64,000 nt of DNA. Origin: Minisyncoccia bacterium (GTDB lineage Bacteria > Patescibacteriota > Minisyncoccia > Phycocordibacterales > UBA9973). The translations under genes and the position numbers were made by a program. The stretch is from assembly GCA_039809245.1 (NCBI GenBank), contig JBDHUP010000001.1, positions 100,137 to 164,136 on the forward strand. Direction: 5' to 3'. This document shows positions 9,144-49,480 of the stretch, piece after piece (position 1 is the stretch's first letter; every line of letters starts with the position of its first letter). The notes beneath the pieces are model-generated. The model saw only the letters and a list, made by a program, of their open reading frames with translations, did no database searches and was not told where the DNA came from.

Positions 9144-9144
9144 A

Positions 9145-9807: not shown

Positions 9808-9810
9808 TTT

Positions 9811-10623: not shown

Positions 10624-10651
10624 ACAAATATTATATCACTCTATTGTTAAA

Positions 10652-10681
10652 AACAAAAACACTCCTAAGAGTGTTTTTGTT
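10652..10681 (-). terminator. Rho-independent terminator downstream of pilA
   Basis: aacaaaaacactc/gagtgtttttgtt stem with loop ctaa, followed by a T-run on the minus strand. Confidence 0.6.
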
Positions 10682-10704
10682 AAATATAAGAAAAATATTT
10701 TCTT

Positions 10705-11151
10705 TTATCCGCAAACTGTATCCGCACTTGAGGCACCTGCTGTAATAGTTGAAGAAGCTTTAGCTCCTGAGAATCCTGTACTATCTACACAGTAGTAGTT
10801 TGTACCACCAGTAGGTAATAATGCTTCAAAAGCCCAACTAGCTGAAACTGCACCAGCAGCACCTGACATTGCACATTTTGTTGAAGTAGCACCTCCGTTA
10901 GTAACAGCAGTTATAAGTGCAGTTATACTTCCAGTTGTAGCGGCAGAACAAAGATCAGCTACATATTGTCCAGATGAGTTAACCCCTAATTCTGCTTGTG
11001 TTCGCATAGAACTCATAGTAGATATAACAGATGCATCTCTACCCTTGTTTCTTGCTGTACTCAAAGAAGCGAGGACAACTGAAGCTAGGATACCGATGAT
11101 TGCGATAACGACCAAAAGTTCGATAAGTGTAAAACCTTTATTTTTATTCAT
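10705..11151 (-). CDS. pilA: Type IV major pilin
   Basis: MNKNKGFTLIELLVVIAIIGILASVVLASL class III signal peptide. Ala/Ser/Thr/Gly-rich body with a C-terminal Cys pair. Confidence 0.9.
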   Translation of the reverse strand: MNKNKGFTLIELLVVIAIIGILASVVLASLSTARNKGRDASVISTMSSMRTQAELGVNSSGQYVADLCSAATTGSITALITAVTNGGATSTKCAMSGAAGAVSASWAFEALLPTGGTNYYCVDSTGFSGAKASSTITAGASSADTVCG

Positions 11152-11217
11152 ACTAAAATGTAAATCTATTAATTTGTATCTTTTATAAAAAGATGCGACC
11201 TTATTTTTAATACTCTT

Positions 11218-11226
11218 ATTATATCA
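11218..11226 (-). promoter_or_regulatory. Candidate extended -10 promoter (TGATATAAT) for pilA
   Basis: Minus-strand TGnTATAAT lies about 65 nt upstream of the pilA start codon. Confidence 0.3.
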
Positions 11227-11272
11227 TATAAAGCTTAAAAAAGCGCAACAACACAATAACTGTGGATATCTT

Positions 11273-12481: not shown

Positions 12482-12487
12482 AAGAAA

Positions 12488-13546: not shown

Positions 13547-13554
13547 AATAATTT

Positions 13555-13947
13555 TTATTTATTATTTACAGTACTAATAATACTATTAACTTTATCTATA
13601 ACTTCAGAAGGAGTGCTAGATGCTTTTACTATATAACCTGCTGCTCCTAATGATTCCCCTCTCGCTATATCTGATGGTTGACCTCGGTTAGATAAAACAA
13701 CGCGGATAGCTCCTGGTGCTAATTTTTCCTCATTCATTTTTTCCATAAGTTCAAATCCGTCCATAACAGGCATTACTATATCTAAGAGTATTATATCTGG
13801 ATTAAGACCTAAATGAAGTTTCTCTAAGGCTTGTTCAGAACCAAGTGAAGTAGTTACGTCAAAATTAGACTGATGGAATTTCAATGCATACATATCGAGA
13901 AGGAAGCTATCATCGTCAATAATCAAAATTTTTTTCTTTACTTCCAT
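13555..13947 (-). CDS. Stand-alone CheY-like response-regulator receiver domain (PilH-like), embedded in the pilus operon
   Basis: KILIIDDDSFLLDMY...DIILLDIVMPVMDGFEL... Confidence 0.8.
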   Translation of the reverse strand: MEVKKKILIIDDDSFLLDMYALKFHQSNFDVTTSLGSEQALEKLHLGLNPDIILLDIVMPVMDGFELMEKMNEEKLAPGAIRVVLSNRGQPSDIARGESLGAAGYIVKASSTPSEVIDKVNSIISTVNNK

Positions 13948-13984
13948 ATAAGGATATTATAATACAGTTACTATACTTTGCCTA

Positions 13985-15730
13985 CTAAAAGTTATAAACC
14001 TCCTGGAAAGGAATACTACCATTTAGACTCTTTACAATTGCATCTTCTCTTATAGAAAGCATTCCACGAGATCTAGCGAGTTTATAAATCTCTTGTTCTT
14101 GTGGTTTCTTAAGTATTATATTTTGCATTTCTTTATCAATTTCAAACATTTCAAACAAAGCAATACGACCTCTCATTCCAGATGGACATTCAGGTGAAGG
14201 AACAGCTTCGTACATTGACTTACCTATATTTAACTTACTCTTGTATTCTTCTGGTAAATCTTGGAATTGTTTTTCGAGCATTATCTTAGTAGCTTCATCT
14301 ATAGGAATTTCATGTTTTGAGGCTGGGAAAATACGGCGAGCTAGACGCTGAGCAACACATAATATAAGTGTAGGAGCGATAAGGTAAGGATCAATTCCCA
14401 TATCTATTAGACGTGGTATAGCTCCAACAGAAGAGTTAGTGTGGAGAGTAGAGAAAACTAAGTGACCAGTAAGAGCTGCTTGAATTGCAAGCTCGGCTGT
14501 TTCTTTATCTCTTATCTCTCCAACATATATTATATCTGGGTCCTGACGTAAAATTGACCTAAGTCCTGAAGCAAAAGTATAACCAATTTCAGGAGTAACT
14601 TGAGATTGATTTACTCCATCAATATGATATTCAACTGGATCTTCTAGAGAAACTATATTCTTTTCTTCATGATCAAGTTCATTTAGCATAGAATAAAGTG
14701 TTGTTGTCTTACCAGAACCAGTTGGACCTGTAAGGAGTATTAAGCCATAAGGTTTCGTGAGAGCGCTCCTAACCAGAGCTAAGTTTTCTTTAGACATATC
14801 TAGATTCCCTAGAGATTGAACTCCTTTATCAGAATCAAGGATACGCATAACAATTTTTTCTCCATAGTATGATGGCATTGTAGAAACACGAAAATCGATT
14901 TTTCGACCATCAATCTTGGCAGAGAATCCTCCATCTTGAGGTTTTCTTTTCTCATCAAGTCTTAACTTCGCTAATATTTTTATACGGGCAACTACTCCAT
15001 TATAGACATTTATAGGCAGTACAAGTGAAGTGTGTAAAACACCGTCAATACGAAATCTTACTCTGACTTTATCACCAACATTTTCAATATGTATATCAGA
15101 AGCAGAACCTTCTGTCGCATGTCTTAAAATAACTGCAACTATTTTAATGATTGGAGCATCTTCAACAATCCTTTCTTCTTCACCTGGTTTTAAAGAATCA
15201 GAAGTTTTTGTATTTTTCTCAATTGTAACACCCTCATCCCCCTCTCCTTTTGCTCCAGCTATTTCAGAATCAAGTTCTGAAAGAGCTTGGTCAACTTCGC
15301 TACCTAATCCTTCGTATGCTTGAATAAGTTGATTGTAAGTTGAAGTTTTAATCAAAAATAACTTGAACGGCTTATTCATTTTTGAAGTTATAAATGTAAG
15401 TGCATCTATAGCTTGAACGTTTTCTGGGTCTGTTATTCCTATTTCAAGAACACTATCAGAAACTCCTATAGGAACAAAGTGGTAAATCTTTGCCGATTCA
15501 GCTGGAATTAACTCTAGCGTTGATGGAACCACTCTCTTAGGATCAATATCTTTTATTGGAACATTGAAAATAGCTCCTTTTGCTTGAAGGATAGCATTCT
15601 CATCCAAATTAAAATCTAATAGGGCTTGGTCGACATTACCACTATATTTCTCATCAGCAATTTTTAAGACTTCAGGTATTTGTATTTCTTTTAGGATGCC
15701 TCTTTTTACTAATTCATCAAGAATTATCAT
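13985..15730 (-). CDS. pilB: Type IV pilus assembly ATPase PilB (GspE family)
   Basis: 581 aa. N-terminal GspII-like domain, Walker A LLTGPTGSGKTTTLYS, and a tetracysteine region. Confidence 0.9.
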   Translation of the reverse strand: MIILDELVKRGILKEIQIPEVLKIADEKYSGNVDQALLDFNLDENAILQAKGAIFNVPIKDIDPKRVVPSTLELIPAESAKIYHFVPIGVSDSVLEIGITDPENVQAIDALTFITSKMNKPFKLFLIKTSTYNQLIQAYEGLGSEVDQALSELDSEIAGAKGEGDEGVTIEKNTKTSDSLKPGEEERIVEDAPIIKIVAVILRHATEGSASDIHIENVGDKVRVRFRIDGVLHTSLVLPINVYNGVVARIKILAKLRLDEKRKPQDGGFSAKIDGRKIDFRVSTMPSYYGEKIVMRILDSDKGVQSLGNLDMSKENLALVRSALTKPYGLILLTGPTGSGKTTTLYSMLNELDHEEKNIVSLEDPVEYHIDGVNQSQVTPEIGYTFASGLRSILRQDPDIIYVGEIRDKETAELAIQAALTGHLVFSTLHTNSSVGAIPRLIDMGIDPYLIAPTLILCVAQRLARRIFPASKHEIPIDEATKIMLEKQFQDLPEEYKSKLNIGKSMYEAVPSPECPSGMRGRIALFEMFEIDKEMQNIILKKPQEQEIYKLARSRGMLSIREDAIVKSLNGSIPFQEVYNF

Positions 15731-15731
15731 A

Positions 15732-16412
15732 CTAATTTGTATTAAATGAAACTACATCACCATATATCGGTGCAGTTCCTACTTTTGCGACTGCCCTATA
15801 AAAGTAAGTAGTCTCTGGAGTTAATCCTTTAATACTTGTAACGAAAGTACCGACTAAAGATTGTTTTACTGGAGATGTGGATTGGCCTAGCTCTGGATCT
15901 GCTCCATATTCAAAGAAAACACTAGTAACTCCACTAAGATTATTTATTGTTCCATTTAAAATTGCACTCTTATCAGTAACCTGAGTTGGGTCATTTGTAA
16001 CAACAGGAGACAAAGCAGAGTTGCTAGAAGAAACTTCGGAAGAAAACGGAGCAAAAGGGTTAGGACGTCCAGGAACTGCAGCTTCTAAATTAACAGTATT
16101 ATCATTAAGCGATAAGAATTCTTGACTGTTAAATATAGTAGTATCAATTTTAATTTTTTTTAGAGATGTGAGTGTCGCAAGAAAAGCAGTATCTTCGGCA
16201 ATTTTATCTTCATTATTTATCCCTAAGACTGAAGAAGAACTACCATTTTGAGATACAAGAGAAGAATTTGCAGAGACAGGAGTATCTAAAGCTTGGACAT
16301 ACAAACTATTTGAAAAATAACTATAAACACCGCCTACTAATAGAGCGAGAGATGTTATTATTAAAAATTTGTTATATGATTTATTCATATTATTTAAGCC
16401 AGTAAGTTTCAA
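15732..16412 (-). CDS. Hypothetical secreted or membrane-anchored pilus-associated protein with a C-terminal beta-sandwich (FN3-like) domain
   Basis: N-terminal TM segment, a Ser-rich linker, and the C-terminal motif LNGTINNLSGVTSVFFEYGADPELGQ...TTYFYRAVAKVGT. Confidence 0.4.
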   Translation of the reverse strand: MKLTGLNNMNKSYNKFLIITSLALLVGGVYSYFSNSLYVQALDTPVSANSSLVSQNGSSSSVLGINNEDKIAEDTAFLATLTSLKKIKIDTTIFNSQEFLSLNDNTVNLEAAVPGRPNPFAPFSSEVSSSNSALSPVVTNDPTQVTDKSAILNGTINNLSGVTSVFFEYGADPELGQSTSPVKQSLVGTFVTSIKGLTPETTYFYRAVAKVGTAPIYGDVVSFNTN

Positions 16413-16980
16413 CTTTTAATGAAAATTCATAAATATTTGGGTCAACTCCATTTTGCTTAGAATCAGGAACTGTAAAACTAACAGATTTAATATCTACTAA
16501 TCGTAGATTATGCTCTACCTCAGATAAAAACTTCGCAAATGAATCATATGTTCCTTTTGTCGAAAACTCTACTGGGAAAACTCCATAAGGCAGAGCACTC
16601 GACGCTCCACTAGAGGCAACTACTGCACCATTATTATTCTTAGAAACTTCAGGGGCATTCTGCTGTGTTTGGAATTTAATATTTTCGACTGGCATGCCAT
16701 GAAGATTTGCTAATTGCTCTATCTCTAGTATAAACCTTATATTATTTACTGTGTTTGGTAAGAAATGAGCAAGGCGATCCTTATCAGCTTGGCTGATATT
16801 CTTATATGCATCAACTAATTTATCTCTAGTCTTTTGAAGATCAGTTGAATTATCTAATGCAACATTATAAACAAGAACATCAGCTTTTAATTGAGAAACT
16901 TCGGCTCGTATTGGATTTACAACTACAAAAAATAGTATGCCAGCGATTAGTATTAAAGATAGTGGAAATAGAAATCTCAT
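16390..16980 (-). CDS. pilO: PilO-like pilus assembly protein
   Basis: Single N-terminal TM segment plus a coiled-coil. Sits between the pilN-like gene and the ORF226/pilB genes. Confidence 0.55.
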   Translation of the reverse strand: MRFLFPLSLILIAGILFFVVVNPIRAEVSQLKADVLVYNVALDNSTDLQKTRDKLVDAYKNISQADKDRLAHFLPNTVNNIRFILEIEQLANLHGMPVENIKFQTQQNAPEVSKNNNGAVVASSGASSALPYGVFPVEFSTKGTYDSFAKFLSEVEHNLRLVDIKSVSFTVPDSKQNGVDPNIYEFSLKVETYWLK

Positions 16981-16982
16981 AT

Positions 16983-17717
16983 TTATTGGTTAGAGTTATT
17001 AGCCGGTAATGAAGTCTCTGGAGGATTAGAAACGGCAGGAGCAACTTGGTTGCTTTGTGTAGTAGAAGTGTCTTGGGTAGCAGGGCTATTATCTTCCGTG
17101 GTTGGTTGTAATTTTAACTGAGTTTGTTCTAGTAACAAATTCTTCTGATATGAAAGAAGCTCTGGGTCAACAATAAAATCTATATCAAAAGTAACATATC
17201 CATTCTTATTCCTCGTTAAGTTTGAAAAAACTACATTTTTAAAAGATCGTCCTTTAGCAGTATTAAAAACATCAGCTTGCAAGGCAATTGATCTATAATC
17301 ACGAGCAATTCCACTCATTTTTACAAAGAAACCTTTATCATTTGTTTGATGGTCAAATTTTGTATACTGAACTCCTGCTATGGTTAAATCACCGAGTAAT
17401 TTAAACAGCGGAGAAAGAACAATGTGACCGTTCAAAACTTGTTTAGCTGAAGATACACGCTTATCGTACAGTTCAAGTTCATCAATGGTGTCTTTCTCAA
17501 AACTATCTCTAACCTTCTCTAATGATGCAGATAGGATTTGCTTTTCTTTTATAAGATAGTTTTTATAAACATATAAACCTCCAGATGCTACCCCAGTAAC
17601 AATAAGAATTAATACGGAAAAAACCATAAAAAGATTCGTAGCTGGTTTACTTTTTGAAACACCAGAAGATGTAATGGGCTTTTTAGGTATAAATGATGTT
17701 TGAAATGAATTTTCCAT
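16983..17717 (-). CDS. pilN: PilN-like pilus assembly protein
   Basis: Single TM segment (LFMVFSVLILIVTGVASGGLYVY) followed by a coiled-coil. Immediately downstream of pilM. Confidence 0.55.
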   Translation of the reverse strand: MENSFQTSFIPKKPITSSGVSKSKPATNLFMVFSVLILIVTGVASGGLYVYKNYLIKEKQILSASLEKVRDSFEKDTIDELELYDKRVSSAKQVLNGHIVLSPLFKLLGDLTIAGVQYTKFDHQTNDKGFFVKMSGIARDYRSIALQADVFNTAKGRSFKNVVFSNLTRNKNGYVTFDIDFIVDPELLSYQKNLLLEQTQLKLQPTTEDNSPATQDTSTTQSNQVAPAVSNPPETSLPANNSNQ

Positions 17718-17725
17718 AATTATAG

Positions 17726-18895
17726 TTAAGATAGTTGGCGTAATGCAAGACCAACCGCCACAGCAAACTCAGGACCGCTTGTTTGTAGGACTGGTTCAAG
17801 AAAGGCTGGTGCCTCTGTTTTCGAAAATGGATTACCGTAGACTACTTCCATATTAAAATTTGCAATAGCATGCTCAAGTAATCCTTTAAGTAGAGAACCT
17901 CCTCCCGTCATAATAACCTTACTTATATTTTTATTATACTTCTTCTCGTAAGCAAGCACAACACTATTTGTCTCTGAGAATATATAATCTGTGGATAGAC
18001 GAACAATGTCAGATACTTGTGAATTCGCTAGTGCATCTAGTCCAATTGATCGCTTCAGTTTTTCAGCTTCATTAAAAGGAATAGTTAGAGATTGTGAAAT
18101 ATTTTTTGATATATCTTGTGAACCACGATTAACTATATGAAATACTCTCACAACACCAGCTTCTACAATAGAAAGCTTTGTTTTTGAAGCTCCAAAATCC
18201 ATCAAAAGTACGGGGGCAAGGTCGTTATTGAAAGTTGAACGAATATTACTAAATACTTCCATCTCAAAAGAATCAGAATGTATCTCAGTCTTTGTTAGAA
18301 TTTCTTGAAACCTAGATAGTGTATCATTGTGTATAGCTACAACTAAAATTTCTAATTTCGGTTCAGCAACTTTTTTATCTTTTTGTTCATTCATCGAATC
18401 TTCAAAATTATCAATTTCCTGTGGAATAACAAACCAGTCAAGCGATACTTCAGAAATAGGAACTGGAATATACTTTCTAGCTTCAATTGGAACTATAGAA
18501 GCGAGTTGATCTTCATTAACTTTAGCAGGAAGAGATATTGTAAAAATCAAACTTGCTGCTGAAGGAATAGCTATAACTCCTGACATGGTCGTGATATTAG
18601 ATTCCTTTATAACATCGGTTAGAGCTCTGGCAATATCATCTGTTGACAGATTTGTGACAACTCCTACATCTGTATTGCCATATGGACCCAATGAAAGAGC
18701 ACCATAAGTTTCAAGAACAGCTTTGCCACCTTTCTTTTTAAGTTGGACAACTTTTATTGCAGATGAACCTATATCTATGCCTAGTACACTTTCTGATGCT
18801 TTTTCAGATTTAAATATATTAGATAAACTAGATAGCCCCCCAGAAATTATTTTCTTTAGTGAATTGTCCATATATACTACTATGTAGTATACCAT
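17726..18895 (-). CDS. pilM: Type IV pilus assembly protein PilM (actin-like ATPase)
   Basis: IGIDIGSSAIKVVQL... actin/HSP70-like fold. Its start is probably the internal Met (MDNSLKK) near 18871. Confidence 0.8.
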   Translation of the reverse strand: MVYYIVVYMDNSLKKIISGGLSSLSNIFKSEKASESVLGIDIGSSAIKVVQLKKKGGKAVLETYGALSLGPYGNTDVGVVTNLSTDDIARALTDVIKESNITTMSGVIAIPSAASLIFTISLPAKVNEDQLASIVPIEARKYIPVPISEVSLDWFVIPQEIDNFEDSMNEQKDKKVAEPKLEILVVAIHNDTLSRFQEILTKTEIHSDSFEMEVFSNIRSTFNNDLAPVLLMDFGASKTKLSIVEAGVVRVFHIVNRGSQDISKNISQSLTIPFNEAEKLKRSIGLDALANSQVSDIVRLSTDYIFSETNSVVLAYEKKYNKNISKVIMTGGGSLLKGLLEHAIANFNMEVVYGNPFSKTEAPAFLEPVLQTSGPEFAVAVGLALRQLS

Positions 18896-18915: not shown

Positions 18916-19590
18916 GTGGAATTAGGCCTTTCTTTTATTAAATCAATAACTAAATGGGTGCTTAACGTACTATTCCCTGATAAGTGCTTAGGGTGTCGTA
19001 TTAAAGGTGATATTCTATGTTTAAAATGTTCTTACAAGATAAGGAGAGCTGAAAGAGAAACAAAATCTGGTATTTTTGCAGCTTACGATTACAGAGACCC
19101 TATAATAAAGAAGGTCATCTGGAATTTGAAATACTATAAAAGAAAAGATCTTGGTGAAAAGCTTGGTAAAATGCTTTATGAGGCATTAATAGAAGAAGTC
19201 GCAGATATCGAAATTTTTACAAAAGGACAACCTATACTAGTACTACCTGTCCCCCTATCAAGAACCAGAAGGAAATTACGAGGTTATAATCAAGCAGAAA
19301 TAATAGCTGATGGATTCTGTAGTTTAGAGAAAGGTAATAAACTTCAATTAGCAAAAAAAGTTATAGCTAAAAAAATTGATACTCTACCTCAAGCCCGTAT
19401 AACAAACAGAGTAATAAGACTTAAAAATATTCATAATGCATTTCAGATTATTAATACAGATATCATAAAGGGCAGAACCATAATCATAATAGACGATGTG
19501 ACTACCACAGGTGGCACAATCTTAGAAATATCAAAACTACTAAAAAAACACGGGGCTAAAAAAGTAGTCGGTTTTGCGATTGCTCATTAA
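18916..19590 (+). CDS. comF: Competence protein ComF (ComFC-type phosphoribosyltransferase domain with N-terminal Zn-ribbon)
   Basis: CLGCRIKGDILCLKC zinc ribbon. C-terminal PRTase motif IIIDDVTTTGGT. Confidence 0.8.
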   Translation: MELGLSFIKSITKWVLNVLFPDKCLGCRIKGDILCLKCSYKIRRAERETKSGIFAAYDYRDPIIKKVIWNLKYYKRKDLGEKLGKMLYEALIEEVADIEIFTKGQPILVLPVPLSRTRRKLRGYNQAEIIADGFCSLEKGNKLQLAKKVIAKKIDTLPQARITNRVIRLKNIHNAFQIINTDIIKGRTIIIIDDVTTTGGTILEISKLLKKHGAKKVVGFAIAH

Positions 19591-20798
19591 TTATTCCAAA
19601 GGTCCCAAATCATACCAGCTATATTTCGTGGTTTTCCTTCTAAAGCATAATAATGTAAATCTATGAATGGCAGTGTATTACATTCTATTATTCCCCACCT
19701 CTGAGTACCTTGATCTTTTGTTGGATCTGGAATAATACAATCAAATCCAACAACCGAAAGTCCTACAACATTAGCTGCTTTTTCTAAGATTGGAATAAAG
19801 CTTGGATGTAGATCATCTATCATTTCTTTTGTTGTTCCTCCAAATAACCTTCCTATCCTATGAGATAGAGTGAGCAAGAATCCATCGGGTAAAATATCAT
19901 CGATTTTAAATCCAAATTTTGAAATGTGATTATATAATTCATCTCCTAAGCGTATAGCTTCAACTCTATCATTACGCAAAAAATCTTTCTCGTTTATTAA
20001 TTGTCTTATCGTTTTATTTCCATCACCAATCACAAACGGTGCTTGCCCTCTGTAAAAACCTGCTAATTTGCCCCCTACAACAGTTGCCCTACAAACATAT
20101 CCATACAAATTTTCTTCTACAACCAAGTGCGCAGATATTTGGCGTGCTATAGAAACTCCCTCTTTAAATTGTTCGAGTGTTTTTATATTAGTAATTGTAT
20201 GTCTAGCTCGAGAACCAATTTTTGGTTTTACTATAACAGGAGTTTTGAATTTTGAAAAAATACTACTCAAACTTTTGAATCTAATAAGGGGAATAAGTGC
20301 ATATTCAGGTACTGGTATGTCGTATTTTGACAATTCTTTCTTTAAAAGAATTTTATTATCCCAATCTTTTCTAAAGTCTAAAAACTCAGGTTGTATAGGT
20401 ATACTTTCAAAATAGATTGTTTTATTTTTTATTTTCGCTCTATACCAATCCAAGGGTTTCTTCCTTAAAATAATTTGGTCCATTTCTATTCCTCTTTTCC
20501 TTGCTTCATCCCATATTACACGAGATCTAAAAGAACTAGCTTTATCAATATCTGAAGAGAAACTTGCTAATCTAAAGACAATAAGTGCCTTAAAAAGAAA
20601 AGTAGGTATCCAACTTGCAAAATCTTTCAGAAACTTTGGTGCATAATTAGTAACTCTCACCATATGGGAATCACTAATTGATGACACGAAGTTTTCCACA
20701 AAAAAAACCTTGTGATTAACCTGAGCATCTCCACAGTAAGAGCATCTTCCGTTTTTTATAATAGTTGGTTCCAACATTGTACATTTAGTATTATACAC
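19587..20798 (-). CDS. ATP-grasp family ligase (cyanophycin-synthetase-like or RimK-like ATP-grasp domain)
   Basis: Central region reads VIVKPKIGSRARHT...YGYVCRATVVGGKLAGFY..., typical of the ATP-grasp fold. The first ATG is at 20777; the ORF track starts at GTG 20798. Confidence 0.5.
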   Translation of the reverse strand: MYNTKCTMLEPTIIKNGRCSYCGDAQVNHKVFFVENFVSSISDSHMVRVTNYAPKFLKDFASWIPTFLFKALIVFRLASFSSDIDKASSFRSRVIWDEARKRGIEMDQIILRKKPLDWYRAKIKNKTIYFESIPIQPEFLDFRKDWDNKILLKKELSKYDIPVPEYALIPLIRFKSLSSIFSKFKTPVIVKPKIGSRARHTITNIKTLEQFKEGVSIARQISAHLVVEENLYGYVCRATVVGGKLAGFYRGQAPFVIGDGNKTIRQLINEKDFLRNDRVEAIRLGDELYNHISKFGFKIDDILPDGFLLTLSHRIGRLFGGTTKEMIDDLHPSFIPILEKAANVVGLSVVGFDCIIPDPTKDQGTQRWGIIECNTLPFIDLHYYALEGKPRNIAGMIWDLWNN

Positions 20799-24150: not shown

Positions 24151-24154
24151 TTTG

Positions 24155-24240
24155 CGGAGGCGGTGAGATTCGAACTCACGGTCCTTTAAAGGGACGACGG
24201 TTTAGTAAACCGTTGATTTAAACCACTCATCCACGCCTCC
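24155..24240 (-). tRNA. Type II (long variable arm) tRNA-Ser-like gene with anticodon loop TTACTAA (anticodon ACU, A34)
   Basis: Reverse complement is GGAGGCGTGGATGAGTGGTTTAAATCAACGGTTTACTAAACCGTCGTCCCTTTAAAGGACCGTGAGTTCGAATCTCACCGCCTCCG. 3-bp D-stem, discriminator G, long variable hairpin. Confidence 0.7.
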
Positions 24241-25630: not shown

Positions 25631-25717
25631 GGAGACGTGTCAGAGTGGTCTAACGTACCTCCTTGCTAAGGAGGCAGGCTTTAATCGGCCTCGAGAGTTC
25701 GAATCTCTCCGTCTCCG
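25631..25717 (+). tRNA. tRNA-Ser (GCU), type II
   Basis: GGAGACGTGTCAGAGTGGTCTAACGTACCTCCTTGCTAAGGAGGCAGGCTTTAATCGGCCTCGAGAGTTCGAATCTCTCCGTCTCCG. Confidence 0.8.
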
Positions 25718-25727
25718 CACATAAAAA

Positions 25728-26100: not shown

Positions 26101-28047
26101 CTATAACTTAATAAAATAAGATAAAATTATAACAATAAAAGCAAGTAAAGATGATAATGCAATAACATTATCTATATGGAAATTACTCGATATAGCAGCT
26201 GCTGGTAAATTCGCGAGCTCTGTGTTACCTATGCTTTTTTCTGGTTTATCTAAATTAACTGTATTTGATGATGCTAAATTTTTAGTATTTTTTGGTTTAT
26301 TTATTTTGGTTTCAATAATCGATTTATTTACTTCGACAGGAGTTTCAGTTAAATCGTTATTAACCTTTTCAATAGTTTCCACTTTGGGTTCTATAGCATT
26401 AGATGTTTCTTCTACTTTTTTAGATATTGTTGATTTTCCAACATGGTGAAAAACTAGGGGCCATGGCTTCTCAAGTGACCCTAAGATAGCATAGCTGGTA
26501 GCCCAAATTCTATTTGAGATTGATTCGTTTTCATCAAGTAAGCCGCTGTCTTGCATTTGGTTATTAGCTAAGTAATCAATTGTATTATTATTTACTGATA
26601 AACCTAAAGCACCTACGGACTGCAATACCCAACTAGTCGAGTAGACACTCCCCCAACCTCCAGTAACATTCTCTGTTGTCTTAATATATGAGCTAGCTAA
26701 ATCTAAAGATTGTGAAACATAAGTCAGAGATCGGAATTGAGATAATGCTTCAATGCTAGCAGCTGTCATATCAACACTTTCTTCCCAAGAACCATCTGCT
26801 TTTTGTTTTGAAATAATATATTGTAAATCTTTTAAAATTATAAGGTCATCAATTGTATAACCAGAGCCCTCAAGAACAATAATCGCAAATATATCATCAT
26901 TAATGAGCGAGTCATCACCAAATTGTGCACCATCAAATGCATTTACTATCGGTGAAATAAAATCCTTATCATTAAATGAATATGGATTTTCGTTTAAAGA
27001 AAGAAGTGCCATAGCATGACGTTCGTTATCTGTAATATTTTTACTAATACCATAATTTGATTTAAAATAACTTATAATTTTTTCTTTTACTTCGGTTTGG
27101 TTTGTAACCGAACCCAAAGCAATACCAGCCCAGTCAGTATACATTTCATTATTTTCAAAAGATCCATTATTATCTTGGTGTGAAATAATAAAATTAACTG
27201 CTCCTTGTAAATCAAAAATTTTTTTATTTATAGATCCACCTCCTCCCCCACCTTGGTTTGATATTTTCTCAACTATAAGCTCCTCAGTCGGGAAATAAAA
27301 ATCTTCTTTGACCCCGACATTATAAGTACCTGGTTCAATTTTTGTAAAAGTAGCTTGACCACTTTGATCTACCTTCTCTGTTTTTATTTCGATTGGATTC
27401 CAAGGATCATCGGGGTTATTTTGGGTTATACCTATTGTCACATCGTCCCTATCGAGCCATTGATTATTTTGATAATCATATTTATATGAAGTGACTGTTA
27501 AACTATCTTCGGTTGTTACTTTTTTTGAACTAAGAGAGATTTTATATTGTTGACCAAAATAAACATAGATATTTTCACCCCCAGATAATATACTTTTATC
27601 CATACCTACACTTCCGTACGCATTATCGACTGCAAATTGCCAATTGTCACATTGCTCAACCGACTTAGAAATATTGTTTATACATTTTATATACAGAGAA
27701 TCAAAAGATGTATAGTATTCTAAGTCTGAAATACTAAAATTTTGACTCTCTTCTGCTACTTTATTTATAACCGCAAGAATGCTTCTATTATCGACACTGT
27801 GTAAAACACCATCTTTATCGGTCAAATCTATATTTTTCTCTTCATCTAGAGTGACATCTCCAGAAAAAATAATATCTTCCCCATCTCTAATCGATAATTT
27901 TACAGTCTGTAAAATCACAGGTTCCTCTTCTGTTAAAGATATTTCAGGTGCGATAGTATCAATGGGTAGAACTTCGTCTTCAGCATGAATAACAAAAAAC
28001 GGTATGACTATAAGAAGAATGTATGTGAGGAGTTTAATTGGTTTCAT
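26101..28047 (-). CDS. Large secreted protein with prenyltransferase/squalene-cyclase-like alpha-alpha toroid repeats and a C-terminal membrane anchor
   Basis: N-terminal signal peptide. Repeats of Q..DG(S/G)W type (QDNNGSFE, QKADGSWEE, NVTGGWGS), a GGGGGGS linker, and a C-terminal hydrophobic segment. Confidence 0.45.
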   Translation of the reverse strand: MKPIKLLTYILLIVIPFFVIHAEDEVLPIDTIAPEISLTEEEPVILQTVKLSIRDGEDIIFSGDVTLDEEKNIDLTDKDGVLHSVDNRSILAVINKVAEESQNFSISDLEYYTSFDSLYIKCINNISKSVEQCDNWQFAVDNAYGSVGMDKSILSGGENIYVYFGQQYKISLSSKKVTTEDSLTVTSYKYDYQNNQWLDRDDVTIGITQNNPDDPWNPIEIKTEKVDQSGQATFTKIEPGTYNVGVKEDFYFPTEELIVEKISNQGGGGGGSINKKIFDLQGAVNFIISHQDNNGSFENNEMYTDWAGIALGSVTNQTEVKEKIISYFKSNYGISKNITDNERHAMALLSLNENPYSFNDKDFISPIVNAFDGAQFGDDSLINDDIFAIIVLEGSGYTIDDLIILKDLQYIISKQKADGSWEESVDMTAASIEALSQFRSLTYVSQSLDLASSYIKTTENVTGGWGSVYSTSWVLQSVGALGLSVNNNTIDYLANNQMQDSGLLDENESISNRIWATSYAILGSLEKPWPLVFHHVGKSTISKKVEETSNAIEPKVETIEKVNNDLTETPVEVNKSIIETKINKPKNTKNLASSNTVNLDKPEKSIGNTELANLPAAAISSNFHIDNVIALSSLLAFIVIILSYFIKL

Positions 28048-36294: not shown

Positions 36295-36459
36295 TATTAT
36301 TAGTTTTAGATTTTAAAAATTAACCTTATTTTTAGACTATCTATTAAACAAGTTATTGTCAATCAAAATTGTCATCACAAATAATTCCGCACCGTCGTTA
36401 CGGAATTTTTGCGATCCCGGCTCGCAATTTTTCCTACTGGAAAAATAATGCTCCGCCCT

Positions 36460-36509
36460 GGACTACATAGAAAAAGGAGTACGCAGATACTCCTTTTTCT
36501 ATGTAGTCC
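36460..36509. repeat. 50-bp perfect palindrome (22-bp arms, 6-nt loop) abutting the 3' end of tRNA-Ile. A terminator or a MITE-like insertion.
   Basis: ggactacatagaaaaaggagta cgcaga tactcctttttctatgtagtcc. Flanked by tccgccct / tccaccct. Confidence 0.6.
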
Positions 36510-36580
36510 ACCCTCTTGGATTCGAACCAAGGACCCCAGAGGTATAAGCTCTGTGCTCTAACCAACTGAGCTAAGGGTGG
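36507..36580 (-). tRNA. tRNA-Ile (anticodon UAU, reads AUA)
   Basis: Reverse complement is CCACCCTTAGCTCAGTTGGTTAGAGCACAGAGCTTATACCTCTGGGGTCCTTGGTTCGAATCCAAGAGGGTGGA. Anticodon loop is CTTATAC. Confidence 0.75.
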
Positions 36581-36631: not shown

Positions 36632-38536
36632 TTAAGCTTTTGCTTCTTCTTTCTTTTTAGGCATTATGCCGTGAGTGGTTATTATCTGATTGTACTCATC
36701 TTGCTCGAGAGTTTCTACTTCTACTAATTTCTTAGCGATAGCTTCTAAAACTTTACGGTGCTCCGTAAGAGTTTGTTTGGCTACTTCAAGAGCCTTGTTC
36801 ATTATTTTAGAAACTTCACCATCAATGAGAGCACTAACTCTTTCAGAATATTCTTGTTCGTTCACACCGCGACCAAACATTGTTCTACCTCCATCACTCT
36901 CTAGTGCCATAGGACCTATCTCGTCACTCATACCCCATCGTGTCACCATAGCACGAGCAAGACCAGTTGCAACTTGCAAATCATTGGATGGGCCAGTAGT
37001 GATATCACCAAAGATCATTTGTTCAGCTGCATAGCCACCCATTGCCATCGCGATATCATCTAAGAATTCTTTTTTACTTTGCAGACGTCTCTCTTCAAGA
37101 GGTAGTTTAAGTGTATAACCTCCAGCAGATCCTCGAGATACAATAGAAACTTTGTGTACTGGATCTGCATAAGGAAGCACCGATGCCACAAGTGCATGAC
37201 CTGCTTCATGGTAAGCTGTAATCTCTTTCTCTTTCTTTGACAGTAAGTGACTCTTGCGCTCAGGACCCATCATGACTTTCTCTATTGAACGTATCAGGTC
37301 GAACTGTGCAACTTTCTTGCGATCTTCACGAGCTGCAAGAATCGCGCCTTCGTTCATAAGTGAATAAAGATCAGCTCCAGAGAATCCAGGAGTGCGCTCG
37401 GCAATGATTTTCAAATTTACATCTTCAGCAAATGGTTTTTTATGTGAGTGTATAGTAAGTATTTCTTCACGATCTGATCGATCTGGAAGATCTAGAAGAA
37501 CTCTTCGATCAAAACGTCCTGGACGTAGGAGCGCAGGGTCGAGCACATCGGAACGGTTCGTCGCAGCCATAACTATTACCTTTTCATTCGGCTCGAATCC
37601 ATCCATCTCGACTAGTATCTGGTTTAGAGTTTGTTCGCGTTCATCATTTCCTCCTCCAACACCAGAACCACGTACACGTCCAACTGCATCTATCTCATCG
37701 ATAAATATTATCGCTGGTGCTGCTTTCTTTGCCATCTTGAACAAGTCGCGAACACGAGAAGCTCCAACTCCGACGAACATTTCGACGAATTCAGAACCAG
37801 ACAAGTGGAAGAATGGCACACTCGCTTCCCCTGCTACCGCACGAGCAAGTAGAGTCTTTCCTGTTCCTGGAGCACCTGTTAAGATAACTCCTTTCGGAAT
37901 ACGAGCACCTATATCAAGAAACTTTTTCGGGTTCCTCAAGAAGTCTACGATCTCTTTCAATTCTTCTTTAGCTTCTTTTGCTCCGGCAACATCTTTGAAT
38001 GTCACACGATTATTCTTATCATTTGGGTCAGTGATACGAGCTTTTGATTGACCGAAAGTGAAGGCTTGCATACCTTGGCCTTTCACTTGCCTTGTCAGCA
38101 TCCAGATAAAGAATATAACAAGTACAACTGGTAGAAGGAATGGGAGTATATTGAGCAACCAATATCCGAAACCACCCTGATCTTTCACTTCTATTGGTGT
38201 CTCAGCTAGCTGAGCTGGAGTAACACCATAGTTATATAGAGTCTCAGAAAGTGAACTCTCTATTTCTTTTTTTGCTTTGCCTAGTGTATCGTCTTTGAAA
38301 GTAACATCAATCTCTTGTCCTATAACTTCTATCTTCTTTATTGTACCTTCGGTAACACTCTTGGCTACATCAGAAATAGTAAGATCTTTTATGGTCTCAG
38401 GGGTTTTAGCTAATAGTGAGTAAATAATCGTAATACTAATAAATATAAAGATAGCAATGACGATTTGACTGCCAATTTTAGGTATTTTCTGTTGGGGTTT
38501 CCTTTTGTTCTTATCCATAGTATGGCCATTATACAC
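36632..38536 (-). CDS. ftsH: ATP-dependent zinc metalloprotease FtsH
   Basis: Two N-terminal TM helices. AAA Walker A GAPGTGKT. Zinc motif HEAGHAL. Confidence 0.95.
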
Positions 38537-38606
38537 GAAAGAGGAGTAAATAAAAAACCGCTTGCAATTGCTTGCAAACGGTTCCTAAAAGACTAAATTA
38601 AAAAGT

Positions 38607-38945
38607 CTATGCAGTTTTCAAAAATGGCATATGATTGCCAAAGTTTGCTTTAAACTTACTCAGGATATCCTTTGCTTTTTCATAGTCATCTCCAGTAAAA
38701 ACCTGGCTATCCTTTAAAGTTTTCTTATAAAGGGATTCCAATTTGGAAAAATATGCCGGTTTTTTGTTTACTGGTATTGGATCACTTTTTTTGCCATCTT
38801 TTAAACCCATTTCAATATGTATGAAAGTTATGAGTTTAATAAGATTTTCTACAAATGAACTTTTCTGGTTCTTGATCACAAACTTACTTTTACCGAACCA
38901 GTTTGGCATTGAGCCACATTTCTTTAACTTTTTCATAACATTCAA
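38607..38945 (-). CDS. Hypothetical protein (112 aa)
   Basis: ORF only. Lys-rich. Confidence 0.3.
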   Translation of the reverse strand: MNVMKKLKKCGSMPNWFGKSKFVIKNQKSSFVENLIKLITFIHIEMGLKDGKKSDPIPVNKKPAYFSKLESLYKKTLKDSQVFTGDDYEKAKDILSKFKANFGNHMPFLKTA

Positions 38946-39146
38946 TTTTAGGGGTTAAATAAATATTTTTGTCCATACTGCCATAATAAGTGATATAAAT
39001 CAATATCTGTGGAGATGGGCTGGACCGTGAGTACACTTGTTGATCCTTACAGGATCTGTACACCTTTTCCATTCGCGATTACACTCATGAGGAAAAGGTC
39101 TTCACCTCCGCCACATAAGCAAAGCAGTTTGCTTGTTCACTCCACA

Positions 39147-39180
39147 ATATAAAAACTCCGCTTGCGCAGAGTTTTTATAT
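39147..39180 (-). terminator. Rho-independent terminator of ssrA
   Basis: aaaaactccgc...gcagagttttt inverted repeat directly downstream of the tmRNA 3' end. Confidence 0.55.
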
Positions 39181-39182
39181 TG

Positions 39183-39578
39183 TGGAGATGGGCGGAGTTG
39201 AACCGCCATGCAAAAGAAGTTCATAGGTGAATCTACATGTTTATCATGTTCGATTGGGTTTAAACGGGAAAGCTAGAGAACAGGCAATATACTTTCGCGC
39301 CGAGCTCTTCATTGTCGGAATTCTATGCAAGCGGTATAAAATTCGTAACCCGATTAATTATGCCTCCCCTATTTATCGGATGTCGATAAGAGAGACACCT
39401 GACCGGCTTAAGTTAAGCGAGTACAGGAGCAAAGTTTAAACCAAATGCGTTAGCAAATGGTGACTTTACTGAAGCGACTTTGTTTGCACTTAGTCTTTTC
39501 CAAGAAGTTTAGAAAGATTCCTGGGTACTTTACATGCACATCTATGAGTGACGTCCTTTGTCGAAGCCCGTCATCCCC
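39183..39578 (-). ncRNA. ssrA: tmRNA (SsrA), standard one-piece form. The tag reading frame at 39413..39487 encodes ANKVASVKSPFANAFGLNFAPVLA-stop.
   Basis: 5' end is GGGGATGACGGGCTTCGAC. 3' end is GGCGGTTCAACTCCGCCCATCTCCA, with acceptor GGGGATG/CATCTCC including the G3:U70 pair. Resume context GACUAAGU GCA AAC matches the E. coli UAGUC GCA AAC context. smpB is adjacent. Confidence 0.85.
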
Positions 39579-39597: not shown

Positions 39598-40047
39598 TTA
39601 TCTTTTATATTCTCGATCGATTTCTCGATCTGTCTCGCGCTTCTTGATAGTCTCGCGTTTGTCATAGTTCTTCTTTCCTTTTACTACAGCAAGCTCTACC
39701 TTGATAAGGCGCCCCTTACTATACAACGAAAGTGGCACCAGCGTCAAACCTTTCATATTATCACTTGGAGCTATTTCCTTTATTTGCTTCTTACTAAGCA
39801 GGAGTTTGCGAGTCCGGGTTGGATCATAATCGAGTGGAGTGTTGCCAACTTGGTATGGTGGAATCTGCATATTCATAAGGTAGACTTCCCCACCACGAAC
39901 TATTGCGAATGCTCCGGCTAGTATCGCTCGGCCACTCTTTATAGACTTCACCTCAAATCCAAAAAGCTCAATACCGGCTTCGTATTTCTGTATAACTTCA
40001 TAATTAAAATGGGCCTTTCGGTTATCTATCAAGACTGTCATATCCAT
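39598..40047 (-). CDS. smpB: SsrA-binding protein SmpB
   Basis: 149 aa. Reads NRKAHFNYEV...GIELFGFEVKSIK.... Sits directly upstream of ssrA. Confidence 0.9.
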   Translation of the reverse strand: MDMTVLIDNRKAHFNYEVIQKYEAGIELFGFEVKSIKSGRAILAGAFAIVRGGEVYLMNMQIPPYQVGNTPLDYDPTRTRKLLLSKKQIKEIAPSDNMKGLTLVPLSLYSKGRLIKVELAVVKGKKNYDKRETIKKRETDREIDREYKR

Positions 40048-46738: not shown

Positions 46739-49480
46739 TTATCCTTGCTGTCTATACTTATCCATAATCTCGGCTTCGACTTCTTCGCGCTCACGGCCAA
46801 ACTTCAAATATGAAAGCTCTTTAATCTTCTCGACTATCTCTGGTGTCCCTTGTGGTGGTGGAAATGTGGCAATATTGAATGGCTTTGTCGGCTGGCCATT
46901 TATGAGCATCGATATATATGCATTACGATTCTCAATTTTCATAATATCAGCTGCAGAGAATACAGGCTTGAATTTGTTTTCGAGGAATTGCGCATCTTCG
47001 CCACCGACTCGGAACACAGCCATAGAACCAACGTTGCCGAAAACAGCATCTCGAATATTCTCTTCAAGTTGAGCTATATACTGGTGAGCAACAGTTAGAG
47101 ATAAGCGGTACTTACGAGCTTCAGATAGAATAGATTCTATGGAGTCAGTAGTCACGTTTTGGAACTCGTCTATATACAAGAAGAAGTCTTCCATTTTTTT
47201 ACCATACATATCTACACGAGAAAGCGCGGCCATTTGTATCTTGTTTACAATTAAAAGACCTATTAGATTCGCATTTATATCGCCAAGGCGTCCTTTCGAA
47301 AGGTTCACAAGCAAAATCTTTTTATTATCCATGATATCTCGGAAGTTGAACACTGATTTCTCTTGAAGGACCACAGGGCGCATGATGTCATTCGAAATAA
47401 AATTATCGAATTTTGAAGTGATATATGGCACGAAGTTGGCAATAGATTGATCACCTGTTGTTTGCTCTGCACTCCTCCAGAACTGAGTTATTATTGGGTT
47501 CTTACAGTGTGAAAGCTTCATATCACGGAATTCTTTATCCGCAAGAACGCGACCAATCTCAAGTAAAGTTGCTCCAGATTCAGGATGCTCCATCACAAGG
47601 AAAGCTGAGTTTTTGAAATACTGTTCGAACATTGGACCTCCAGATGTCTTCATATCAAAAAGCTTGTTAAAGATATTCATTAATTCGTTAACTACAAAAG
47701 TCTTCTGCTCTGGATACTTTGGATCATACTCAAGCATATTGAGCCCCATAGGTCGCGCTGTGTAAGCCGGATCGAAATAAATAACGTCGTCAATTCGCTC
47801 TTTTGGAATGTAGCTAAGAATATCTTGGATATCTGTACCATGCGGATCAATATAACAAACTCCGTGACCGGCTTTGATATCCTGAGCGATCATATTCTTC
47901 ATAATTGTAGTCTTTCCTGTACCTGTTTGACCTATAACATACAAATGGCGCATTCGATCTTCATCAGCAAAGTGTACTTCGGTATCTTTCCCTCTATAAC
48001 TATTTATACCGAGCTTAATACCTTCTGATCCCATCTCTATTGGAGCAGGGGCTATGCCAGCACGAGCTTGTTTGAGCTGAGGAGAGACGATGCCATATGG
48101 GAAGTGAAAGATTGTAGCAAGCTCTTTGAGATTTAGTGGCATAGAATACTTCTGTGAAAACATACGATATGAGAAATCGTGAACCAGTGCATTCAAGTCA
48201 GAACCTTGTGGGTGATTAAAATTAAAACTATTACGGTGTGATTCAGTGAATTGATTAAAAGAAGATTCAATATCAGCTAGAATCTGATCCGCGCGAGTTT
48301 TGCTTTCCGCCGAAGCAACGATACGAATATTGGCAGCCATTATAGTACTCTTCATTTTCTCTGTAATGCTTTCTATCGCTTTGTCGTTGATCTTTTTCTC
48401 TTCTTTTTCTTTTGATTCACCGAAAATCATGCCTTTTGCTAACTTACCGAACTCTTTACCGAATTGACGAACAACACTAGAAGCTGTTTTAACTGACATT
48501 CCCTCTTTGACATCACCTAATATAGTGTGGAATTTTTTTATTATTTCATCATCCTCTGGACATATTGTGAATTGTATTGAGGCTCCTTCACCAGACTTCT
48601 TAAGTTTAGTGAAAACATTAAGAATTATATTTAGTGGATCGTGGTCTATGGCGTCATATAATTTGATAGGATAGACCTCGTAAGAATCAAGGGTGGCATA
48701 AGAAGCTGAGATGGCTCCCCCTTCGGAGAAAATATTATAATCATCAGGCACTTCGACAATCTTGGCATGAGAATGGACTCCGAGTAACTGTTTCTCAAAT
48801 AGATCAGCTTTATGAGTAGGGACAGCTGTGTAGAATATAAAATGGTCAGTATCTTCTGCTAGAGCAATCTCGAGAGTAAAGTGATTACGGTTATAATTCT
48901 CACGACCTTCACCGACTGAATGCATACCGGCATAGAACTGCTCCATAGCTGAAAGTAACTCCTTTAAACTTTTCTTATTCTTCTCATCATCTTCTGGGTC
49001 AGGTAGAGTGATCTCGAAAAGCTTCATATCTAGAGATTTAAACAGTGGTGTTCCCTCCTTGAGTCCTGGAATCTTATGTGTACTATATAAATACTGGACT
49101 AAGAAACGATGGAAATCATCATCTAGATGGGGATTATTCATCTTACTTATTACAGAAAGAGCGCTAGATATACCTTTACTTAGAAGGACTCCTAGCATTT
49201 CCTCCATTTTATTATCATGTGACTCTGGGTGAAGACGAAGAACAAGCTTTTCTTCTTCTCCTTCTTTCATTACCACATTCTTATGCATTACTTCGTGTGG
49301 TTCAAGCTTTTTGTACTCTTGGATTACATCGTGAGCGAGTGCTTCCTTCGAATATTCTTGACCTTGTTCGCTTAGAGATCTTTCTTTCTCGGCGAGATGC
49401 GCACGTAAAAATTCAAGCTCCTCTTGTGGAGTTTTGAACTTTGGAGCATTGTTTAAATTAAAACCTTCCATTGTATTCAT
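46739..49480 (-). CDS. Large P-loop NTPase of the VirD4/TraG/HerA-FtsK-like superfamily, preceded by a roughly 470-aa N-terminal region of unknown function
   Basis: Walker A VIGQTGTGKTT. Walker B FFLYIDEF. Arginine-finger-like YRLSLTVAHQ. 913 aa. Confidence 0.45.
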   Translation of the reverse strand: MNTMEGFNLNNAPKFKTPQEELEFLRAHLAEKERSLSEQGQEYSKEALAHDVIQEYKKLEPHEVMHKNVVMKEGEEEKLVLRLHPESHDNKMEEMLGVLLSKGISSALSVISKMNNPHLDDDFHRFLVQYLYSTHKIPGLKEGTPLFKSLDMKLFEITLPDPEDDEKNKKSLKELLSAMEQFYAGMHSVGEGRENYNRNHFTLEIALAEDTDHFIFYTAVPTHKADLFEKQLLGVHSHAKIVEVPDDYNIFSEGGAISASYATLDSYEVYPIKLYDAIDHDPLNIILNVFTKLKKSGEGASIQFTICPEDDEIIKKFHTILGDVKEGMSVKTASSVVRQFGKEFGKLAKGMIFGESKEKEEKKINDKAIESITEKMKSTIMAANIRIVASAESKTRADQILADIESSFNQFTESHRNSFNFNHPQGSDLNALVHDFSYRMFSQKYSMPLNLKELATIFHFPYGIVSPQLKQARAGIAPAPIEMGSEGIKLGINSYRGKDTEVHFADEDRMRHLYVIGQTGTGKTTIMKNMIAQDIKAGHGVCYIDPHGTDIQDILSYIPKERIDDVIYFDPAYTARPMGLNMLEYDPKYPEQKTFVVNELMNIFNKLFDMKTSGGPMFEQYFKNSAFLVMEHPESGATLLEIGRVLADKEFRDMKLSHCKNPIITQFWRSAEQTTGDQSIANFVPYITSKFDNFISNDIMRPVVLQEKSVFNFRDIMDNKKILLVNLSKGRLGDINANLIGLLIVNKIQMAALSRVDMYGKKMEDFFLYIDEFQNVTTDSIESILSEARKYRLSLTVAHQYIAQLEENIRDAVFGNVGSMAVFRVGGEDAQFLENKFKPVFSAADIMKIENRNAYISMLINGQPTKPFNIATFPPPQGTPEIVEKIKELSYLKFGREREEVEAEIMDKYRQQG

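Follow-up and report, generated by a model that had tools for sequence, protein, structure and literature searches.

We analysed a 64 kb stretch of the Minisyncoccia bacterium contig JBDHUP010000001.1 (the "window", meaning all 64,000 nucleotides), and in particular the DNA that follows its tmRNA (transfer-messenger RNA) gene, ssrA. A short direct repeat of the 3' end of this gene had been flagged, in an original prediction made from the letters alone, as an integration scar. The flagged repeat is instead the 3' arm of a previously uncatalogued module that lies behind tRNA and tmRNA genes of Patescibacteria and holds no open reading frame (ORF). We use the name "tail module" for this ORF-less element of about 130-170 nt, which is located immediately 3' of tRNA or tmRNA genes and is oriented with the gene.

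Two copies of the 13-mer TGTGGAGATGGGC, and no more, are present in the window; they lie on the plus strand at 39008-39020 and 39181-39193. About 0.03 chance matches would be expected and two copies arose in 0/100 shuffles, placing the predicted pair beyond chance; a search of the window allowing one mismatch returned only the two known copies. On the strand of the tmRNA gene the repeat has the sequence GCCCATCTCCACA: three nucleotides that end the T-stem, then the acceptor 3' strand and the discriminator, and a further two of flank. Copy 1 (39181-39193) closes the minus-strand tmRNA gene called by both ARAGORN and Rfam, as had been claimed, and the match of 17 in 18 in extended context holds as well, because ATATCTGTGGAGATGGGC (39003-39020) and ATATTGTGGAGATGGGC (39177-39193) align with a single 1-nt indel. 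The features of the locus, in the direction of the tmRNA gene, are as follows.

39598-40047: smpB, directly upstream of the tmRNA gene
39180-39578, minus strand: one-piece tmRNA gene, ssrA (Rfam RF00023, 108.7 bits; ARAGORN 39182-39578)
39140-39187, minus strand: T1 hairpin, with A-tract, GC stem CTCTGC/GCGGAG, loop GCAA and T-tract
39117-39134, minus strand: hairpin a, AAGCAAA-CTGC-TTTGCTT, read from sequence, between the antisense acceptor and antisense T-arm segments
39101-39112, minus strand: X', antisense T-loop and T-stem 3' strand, GGCGGAGGTGAA, 11/12 complementary to the tmRNA's TTCAACTCCGCC
39063-39098, minus strand: hairpin b (CCTTTTCC...GGAAAAGG), read from sequence; the homologous helix covaries in alignment A1
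39047-39068, minus strand: conserved core motif AAAAGGTGTACAGATCCTGTAA, covering the hairpin b 3' strand, the junction GUGUAC, and the hairpin c 5' strand and loop
39042-39056, minus strand: hairpin c, GATCC-TGTAA-GGATC, with loop UGUAA
39027-39036, minus strand: hairpin d, GTG-TACT-CAC, belonging to the "long form" of the module; a recurrent AAGYGTACTCRCGG block
39008-39026, minus strand: X and copy 2, the sense copy GGTCCAGCCCATCTCCACA, with the exact 13-mer at 39008-39020
38553-39007, minus strand: segment outside the module, between copy 2 and ftsH, with a 112-aa ORF (ORF112, 38607-38945) and a terminator (38553-38586)
36632-38536: ftsH, downstream of the tmRNA gene

The roughly 160 nt between the repeat copies are an antisense and a sense copy of the tmRNA 3' end arranged around hairpins, and not an anonymous spacer. 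The order of parts is the host 3' end, T1, an antisense acceptor strand that lengthens T1 into a palindrome, hairpin a, X', the core (hairpins b and c at a junction), a sense copy of the T-loop and T-stem and, in about half of the modules, of the acceptor. The hairpin predicted after ssrA is T1, an inverted repeat with 22-nt arms (39140-39161/39166-39187) that are 95% complementary; in its outer arms the antisense acceptor segment GTGGAG (39140-39145) base-pairs with CTCCACAA, the 3' end of the tmRNA. A simple terminator scan did not call T1, because its T-tract sits within the stem. The minimum free energy (MFE) fold of 38990-39215 (minus strand) has z = -8.1.

Most family members carry a hairpin at the position of hairpin a, with a variable stem and a loop that is often CUGC-like. 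Homologues of X' are complementary to the T-arm of their own genome (GGGGGAATCGAA in locus L034, GCGGAATCGAAC in L028). At the other end, GGTCCAGCCCATCTCCACA reads as a degenerate T-loop and T-stem 3' strand followed by an exact acceptor 3' strand, the discriminator and CA. The core motif is present in a single copy within the window, and ORF112, beyond copy 2, has no Pfam or PHROG match.

Arms and core in relatives and across the family

A SmpB scan of GTDB genomes places the organism among the Paceibacterota, within the candidate phyla radiation; loci of other genomes and metagenomes are labelled with L and a number. The closest relative is L001 (SmpB 92% identical), followed here by L002 (89%). 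The tmRNA acceptor stem is GGGACTG/CAGTTCC in L001 and GGGGATG/CATCTCC in the window. The antisense segment after T1 in L001 is GTGGAACTG and its downstream sense copy is TCCGCCCAGTT; both match the acceptor of L001 itself, and thus both arms follow L001's tmRNA and not that of the window. In each genome, CATCTCC in the window and CAGTT(CC) in L001, the gene end is mirrored in its own antisense and sense arms.

Between these two loci, the DNA from the antisense arm to X is 96.8% identical (120/124) and the 77-nt module core 98.7%, against 78-81% for the tmRNA and 86% for T1, whose hairpin is kept via compensatory changes. Third codon positions are 52% identical in smpB and 47% in ftsH, with synonymous sites saturated. 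In other tmRNA-linked pairs core identity is mostly near tmRNA identity (for example 75% and 76% for the window and L100), which makes the pair of the window and L001 (98.7% vs 81%) anomalous and resembling a recent exchange. L001 has neither ORF112 nor its terminator: copy 2 breaks off after CAGTT and ftsH comes next (alignment A2); the L001 junction at that position shows GTT/TT microhomology. In L002, no hairpin or module was found within the 113 nt between the tmRNA gene and the contig end.

The architecture recurs behind tmRNA genes of at least eight other Patescibacteria genomes. Behind the tmRNA genes of L001, L003, L007, L028, L034, L047 and L066, a direct repeat of 10-22 nt lies 134-262 nt downstream (22 nt in L066, 18 in L003, 13 in L034 and L028, 11 in L047, 10 in L007). 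An inverted repeat of 8-12 nt is found behind the tmRNA in L001, L003, L028, L034, L047, L066 and also L025, and not in L007. It is the acceptor complement beside T1 in L001, and in the others corresponds to their own T-loop/T-stem, 47-75 nt after the gene. Upstream controls of the tmRNA loci gave repeats of at most 10 nt.

A search of metagenome contigs with the core motif AAAAGGTGTACNGANNNTGTAA returned at least 120 loci, 74 of which, among those listed, have a tRNA or tmRNA gene on the same strand at most 320 nt upstream. Among the matches listed, 17 tRNA types (Glu, Gly, Leu, Asp, Arg, Ser, Lys, Gln, Pro, Tyr, Val, Ile, Trp, Met, Thr, Cys and Ala) occur as hosts, as does tmRNA; a tmRNA neighbour was called by ARAGORN for only one of the 120 loci listed. 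In the same set, the exact direct repeat of the tRNA tail after the motif has a median of 11 nt and a maximum of 25, and the inverted repeat before the motif a median of 11 nt and a maximum of 17, compared with 0 in upstream controls. The longer direct repeats (18-25 nt) start in the T-loop and run through the discriminator and "CAA". Module size (about 150 nt) and architecture hold steady across at least 74 loci.

Among listed loci without a called tRNA, Rfam places one behind a group I intron tRNA and one behind a tmRNA. The former is L090 (original coordinates 9839-10101, minus strand), where an intron-bearing tRNA (group I; Rfam 65.5 bits), missed by ARAGORN, is followed by a tail module. 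Some loci of this kind follow merely degenerate tRNA-3'-like sequence, and orphan and truncated copies exist. Tandem arrays also occur, of identical as well as diverged modules, with terminator-like hairpins after each unit.

The arms and the core behave differently. Where copies 1 and 2 mismatch, it is copy 1, the real gene, that the antisense arm matches in 12 cases; copy 2 is matched in 1, and 2 cases fit neither. Copy 2 includes its acceptor part in 30/57 modules; the other 27 lack it, with copy 2 usually ending directly behind the T-stem strand. What stays constant, therefore, is the palindrome made up of gene 3' end, T1 and antisense arm, together with the three-way junction that X' and X close. 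Cores cluster by lineage and not by tRNA type, the nearest-neighbour core belonging to the same amino-acid type in 13/73 cases vs 8% by chance. The cores behind two distinct tRNA-Leu genes that lie 2 kb from each other in L185 differ at 1 of ~72 nt; both antisense T-arm segments match their own tRNA, and the sense copy does so in one. The arms thus fit the local gene, while the core is common to different tRNA types of one lineage.

A covariance model, R1, was built from 42 cores and finds modules behind tRNA-Ile(UAU) in L015 and L005. The distribution is patchy: only 1/9 tRNA-type genes of the window carries a module, and none is seen behind the L002 tmRNA. The window's own tRNA-Ile(UAU) (36459-36580, minus strand) is followed by a perfect hairpin with 23-nt arms (36459-36510), whose outer arm TAGTCCA is complementary to the tRNA 3' end, and its tRNA-Ser(GCU) (25631-25718) has a shorter version of this acceptor-reaching hairpin. 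Terminator palindromes that reach the acceptor strand therefore also occur without a module. A tRNA-Ser(ACU) with a tail module is carried by the metagenome locus L180, noted in connection with window 24154-24240 (minus strand). The only further R1 match in the window, at 852-971 (minus strand) upstream of tRNA-Thr(CGU), is weak (17.3 bits, E 0.53), has neither arms nor a host RNA gene, and was rejected as a second module; it is probably noise.

The architecture extends to other core sequences. In L066 (7324-7560), a Clostridia-labelled metagenome-assembled genome and hence outside Patescibacteria labels, a terminator is followed by an antisense T-arm segment, two hairpins, a 22-nt sense copy with CCA and a second, similar terminator, around a core of different sequence that R1 does not find. 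L025, L028, L047 and the second units of L100 and L168 show other core variants after the antisense T-arm segment, for example ...GAATCGAAC(A/G)GACGGAAGCG..., while the variant GGTGAG...CGCAAGACC has an extra local hairpin in place of X' and may be a circular permutation of the junction. Judged from these sequences, the superfamily appears larger than the searched motif.

Two further contigs hold other elements besides a module. In L171 (574-3929), a tail module upstream of infC-rpmI-rplT has IS256-like and other transposase genes within or beside it. Derivation of the module from an insertion sequence (IS) end was rejected: the transposase genes are inserted into the module next to infC, and the IS is unrelated to the core. 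L162 has a LOOT RNA (3062-3184, minus strand; Rfam RF03000, 72.9 bits) on the same contig as a module.

Fold of the core

X' pairs with X and closes a three-way junction whose helices covary. Alignment A1 was used to test three proposed helices, namely P1 (X'/X), hairpin b and hairpin c. Overall, 83.1% of cells are paired vs 67.3% in shuffles, with double-sided changes at 22/31 pairs, and the covariation score of 0.392 (0.141 when shuffled) was reached by 0/500 shuffles; slid registers gave at most 58% paired. Hairpin c has three variable pairs, for which 329/336 instances across 112 modules are Watson-Crick, with double-sided changes at all three. The conserved junction and loop nucleotides are GAA, GUGUAC and the loop UGUAA. 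In L084 and L119, two diverged tandem units lie behind one tRNA-Asp and keep hairpins a, b and c through compensatory changes. Together, the covariation and the compensation between tandem units indicate that a single-strand fold is under selection. Conserved secondary structure backed by covariation, the mark of a structured non-coding RNA, is thus present.

Which strand folds is less clear. By raw energy the tmRNA-sense strand folds more stably in 99/110 cores. Inside the MFE helices there are 207 G.U pairs in the sense-strand fold and 73 in the antisense-strand fold, and G.U stands against A.C as 207 to 10. Folding energy was nonetheless rejected as proof of a sense-strand RNA: the raw difference vanishes under composition control, and only a modest G.U vs A.C count is retained. 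On these models, the fold leans weakly to the tmRNA-sense strand and may act as RNA from read-through transcripts; single-stranded DNA (ssDNA) is also possible as the acting molecule.

The module corresponds to no known RNA family. In Rfam 15, none matches it and only tmRNA reaches the gathering threshold in the region; at E up to 10, there is just noise and a sub-threshold tmRNA_permuted besides tmRNA. The tmRNA_permuted (RF04321) matches, at window 39101-39207 (minus strand, E 0.0056) and L100 581-659, both with E near 0.006, score 23-29 bits against a gathering threshold of 47, and the weak window match was set aside as a real T-arm plus a fortuitous or antisense segment. In permuted tmRNA, too, a spacer hairpin separates the T-arm and acceptor 3' strand from a later segment that can base-pair with that acceptor strand. 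It differs in that the tmRNA upstream of the module is complete and one-piece, the scores are far under gathering, and the arrangement also stands behind ordinary tRNAs. A tRNA-like gene closed by GGAGGUG/CAUCUCC was likewise rejected, as the stem is lost in L001 and neither ARAGORN nor Rfam calls it. Hammerhead and other known ribozymes, T-box, SRP and Y RNA have no Rfam match here, and the junction order, read from sequence, is unlike that of the hammerhead. Literature searches found no description of such an element.

Nature of the module

The original prediction took the repeat pair for an att-type duplication at ssrA. Its geometry does fit insertions at tRNA and tmRNA genes, and we class the module with insertions that duplicate the 3' end at tRNA-type genes. 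The accompanying proposal, that the pair is the scar of an excised or decayed element or a minimal att remnant, is not supported. A decaying scar is expected to be the least conserved DNA of its locus, whereas the module is the most conserved, well above the tmRNA and third codon positions (~50%) in the comparison with L001. Its size is constant, its fold covaries, and its architecture recurs behind many gene types without an ORF; when relatives were compared for an island between the repeats, as the prediction had proposed, the same-size ORF-less module was found behind tmRNA and many tRNA genes. Unlike att scars, it includes the same gene end in antisense as well, and T1 and the acceptor segment beside copy 1 diverge as host DNA does. 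Finally, the 45 large ORFs of the window include no integrase, transposase, reverse transcriptase, recombinase or phage gene, no ORF was found inside the modules inspected or in the window's ~160 nt, and the core motif AAAAGGTGTACNGANNNTGTAA has 0 matches in viral contigs, for which reason a phage attP was also rejected. Three large ORFs of the window, of 913, 648 and 396 aa (46739-49480, 26101-28047 and 19587-20777, all minus strand), have no Pfam match at E <= 1e-6. An island farther downstream, bounded by a third repeat, was discarded since there is no third 13-mer copy even with one mismatch allowed and ORF112 has no Pfam or phage match.

We favour, with middling confidence, a reading of the module as a non-autonomous, semi-mobile, structure-dependent element of tRNA-type genes. 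It would spread or be exchanged by recombination in the conserved T-loop-to-3'-end sequence that flanks it on both sides; as both sides resemble the host's T-loop-to-3'-end, insertion, duplication or exchange would leave the gene intact. Hairpin-templated (quasi-palindrome) correction via T1, selection on X'/X pairing, or both would keep the arms in step with the gene, and the conserved junction fold would be the handle recognised by a putative trans-acting factor. Behaviour resembling mobility is seen in the anomalous pair of the window and L001, the near-identical cores of L185, the mismatch between cores and tRNA types, the tandem arrays, the patchiness, and the orphan and truncated copies.

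Short interspersed repeats such as REP/BIME, ERIC, Correia, BOX and MITE-like elements are similar in being short, ORF-less and structured, in lying after gene 3' ends or terminators, and in their patchy, multi-copy distribution with lineage variants. They have the same ends everywhere, whereas the arms of each module copy the adjacent tRNA or tmRNA in sense and antisense, and modules are mostly behind tRNA-type genes. In place of the many copies with identical termini of a MITE or REP, there is one copy in the 64 kb of the window, and arms differ between loci, each copying its own adjacent gene. More generally, the module shares single features with several known classes but lacks a defining feature of each.

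Several points weigh against a semi-mobile element. No trans-acting recombinase or associated protein was identified, and no circular or viral form was found when viral contigs were searched for the core. If T1 terminates efficiently, transcription of the module would be rare. The gain of an antisense arm on a new insertion is unexplained by known recombination mechanisms, and an appearance of mobility could also arise from vertical inheritance under very strong constraint combined with gene conversion. Folding singles out neither strand nor molecule: shuffle-controlled z-scores are equal (-4.55 vs -4.89), and in the defined helices G.U exceeds A.C by 42 to 24 only. The 96.8% identity between the window and L001 could in principle come from an assembly mosaic. 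Lastly, no empty site with precise boundaries was seen, at strain level either, since in two other samples the locus is 100% identical to the window.

The alternative that survives best, although we consider it unlikely, is a functional non-coding RNA serving the upstream tRNA or tmRNA. In this scheme X' would pair with either the host 3' half or X around an aptamer-like junction, and a ligand or protein bound there would pick the pairing and thereby control whether the upstream RNA matures or decays; otherwise, a mimic of the tRNA top half would be released. Such a role accords with the covarying helices and the conserved junction and loop nucleotides, as in riboswitch aptamers, with the fold kept by diverged tandem paralogues, with the very high sequence conservation, and with the constant gene orientation and the terminator-like hairpin after each array unit. 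The weak G.U excess on the sense strand points the same way, set against composition-controlled folding without strand preference. It is harder to reconcile with patchy, truncated and orphaned copies, an acceptor copy missing in 27/57, cores grouped by lineage rather than tRNA type, and the position of T1, which separates the gene from the module. The antisense acceptor segment also pairs blindly, with A-U at the tmRNA's G3.U70 identity pair, and extends into the flank; it therefore does not mimic aminoacylation identity.

Arms matched to one specific tRNA recall T-box specifiers, and T-box riboswitches similarly combine a conserved structured core with short segments tuned to one tRNA. T-boxes, however, are mRNA 5' leaders that read the anticodon and the free NCCA end. 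The module stands 3' of the tRNA gene and matches the base-paired T-arm and acceptor 3' strand. Among the matches listed, 48 genes downstream of modules are co-oriented and 44 opposed; an upstream and co-oriented placement, as of a 5' cis-regulatory leader, is thus not seen, and the module is not a 5' leader. At the window locus, a leader of ftsH or another downstream gene was rejected on the same count and because ORF112 and its terminator intervene.

A classical integrase att duplication, with the module as a cis-mobilisable mini-element or as fused island ends, the block as attP arms and a tyrosine or serine recombinase encoded elsewhere, is improbable. The comparison with ssrA and tRNA islands and CIMEs is nevertheless close in several respects: all lie at the 3' end of a tRNA-type gene in gene orientation, have a direct repeat (13 nt in the window, 10-25 nt in relatives), leave an intact gene and form tandem arrays. 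The ssrA islands of Dehalococcoides have a 20-bp repeat, T-loop insertion and tandem arrays (PMC3146451). T-loop integration at tRNA genes is established, by phages such as Ms6 (PMC1762012). In many family members the repeat likewise begins in the T-loop, extending for 18-25 nt through the 3' end in relatives, where a second terminator may follow, and the element provides a hairpin right behind the restored gene.

Island genes are missing: neither the window nor any of the modules inspected shows an integrase or cargo, and viral contigs gave 0 matches. Unlike ssrA islands and CIMEs, the module is constant at ~150 nt, which across at least 74 loci and with a covarying three-way junction is unexpected of deletion remnants or of a foreign, decaying insert. 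Its core is common to 17 tRNA types and tmRNA, att sites have no function for an antisense gene end such as it carries, and copy 2 is often cut directly behind the T-stem strand. Moreover, T1 and the acceptor segment, which would be expected to show core-like conservation if borne by the element, diverge like host DNA beside copy 1.

By analogy with integron attC sites and the attP(+) of CTX phage, the module could be a folded ssDNA recombination site, its palindrome mimicking the double-stranded target, an explanation that we regard as very doubtful. Recombination followed by replication would leave a target copy, a loop, an inverted copy, the body and a further target copy, and the order of parts in the module equals this expectation for integration of a hairpin attP. 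As in those sites, the palindrome is imperfect, structure is conserved over sequence with stems free to change, hairpin a is extrahelical, the apex T1 is variable and arrays occur; in addition, GC-NNN-GC mini-hairpins recur in hairpin b. Motif-discovery pipelines can indeed take ssDNA attC sites for structured RNAs (PMC5737381). Nevertheless, no integron- or Xer-type recombinase is linked to modules or present among the window ORFs, and cassettes and ORFs are absent. With their A-tract and T-tract, the apex hairpins look like intrinsic RNA terminators, and the arms, as copies of the local tRNA end, differ per tRNA, which a single attC-like site would not need. A chance repeat or simple local duplication, for which only the 13-nt length of the window repeat speaks, can be dismissed, given 0/100 shuffles and an arrangement that recurs in dozens of loci with host-following arms.

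The tail modules may also be viewed, tentatively, as a new class of programmable element tied to tRNA-type genes, either a riboswitch-like, 3'-side RNA switch on tRNA or tmRNA maturation or a new mode of target-site capture. In the first form, the arms may let a junction "sensor" alternately invade the 3' half of the upstream RNA and release it. In the second, a self-propagating element may write the 3' end of its target, in sense and antisense, into its own arms via hairpin-templated synthesis. Elsewhere in the window (7931-18895, minus strand) lies a type IV pilus/competence-like cluster with three prepilin-type proteins, a prepilin peptidase, a PilC-like T2SSF protein, two T2SSE ATPases, PilO and PilM, which would be relevant if DNA uptake aids the spread of the element.

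Direct repeats of tRNA and tmRNA 3' ends are routinely taken as island boundaries; here, this signature is that of a compact, conserved, structured element without an ORF. The finding affects island-calling software, the annotation of tRNA and tmRNA genes in CPR (candidate phyla radiation) genomes, and hunts for ribo-regulators and recombination systems in reduced genomes. The tail element is widespread in Patescibacteria, with at least 120 loci, and is absent from Rfam. If mobile, it would be a minimal passenger of tRNA genes with target-matched sense and antisense arms, a design undescribed for MITEs, CIMEs or attC sites; if it acts as RNA, it would be a tRNA-specific structured RNA that works from the 3' flank.

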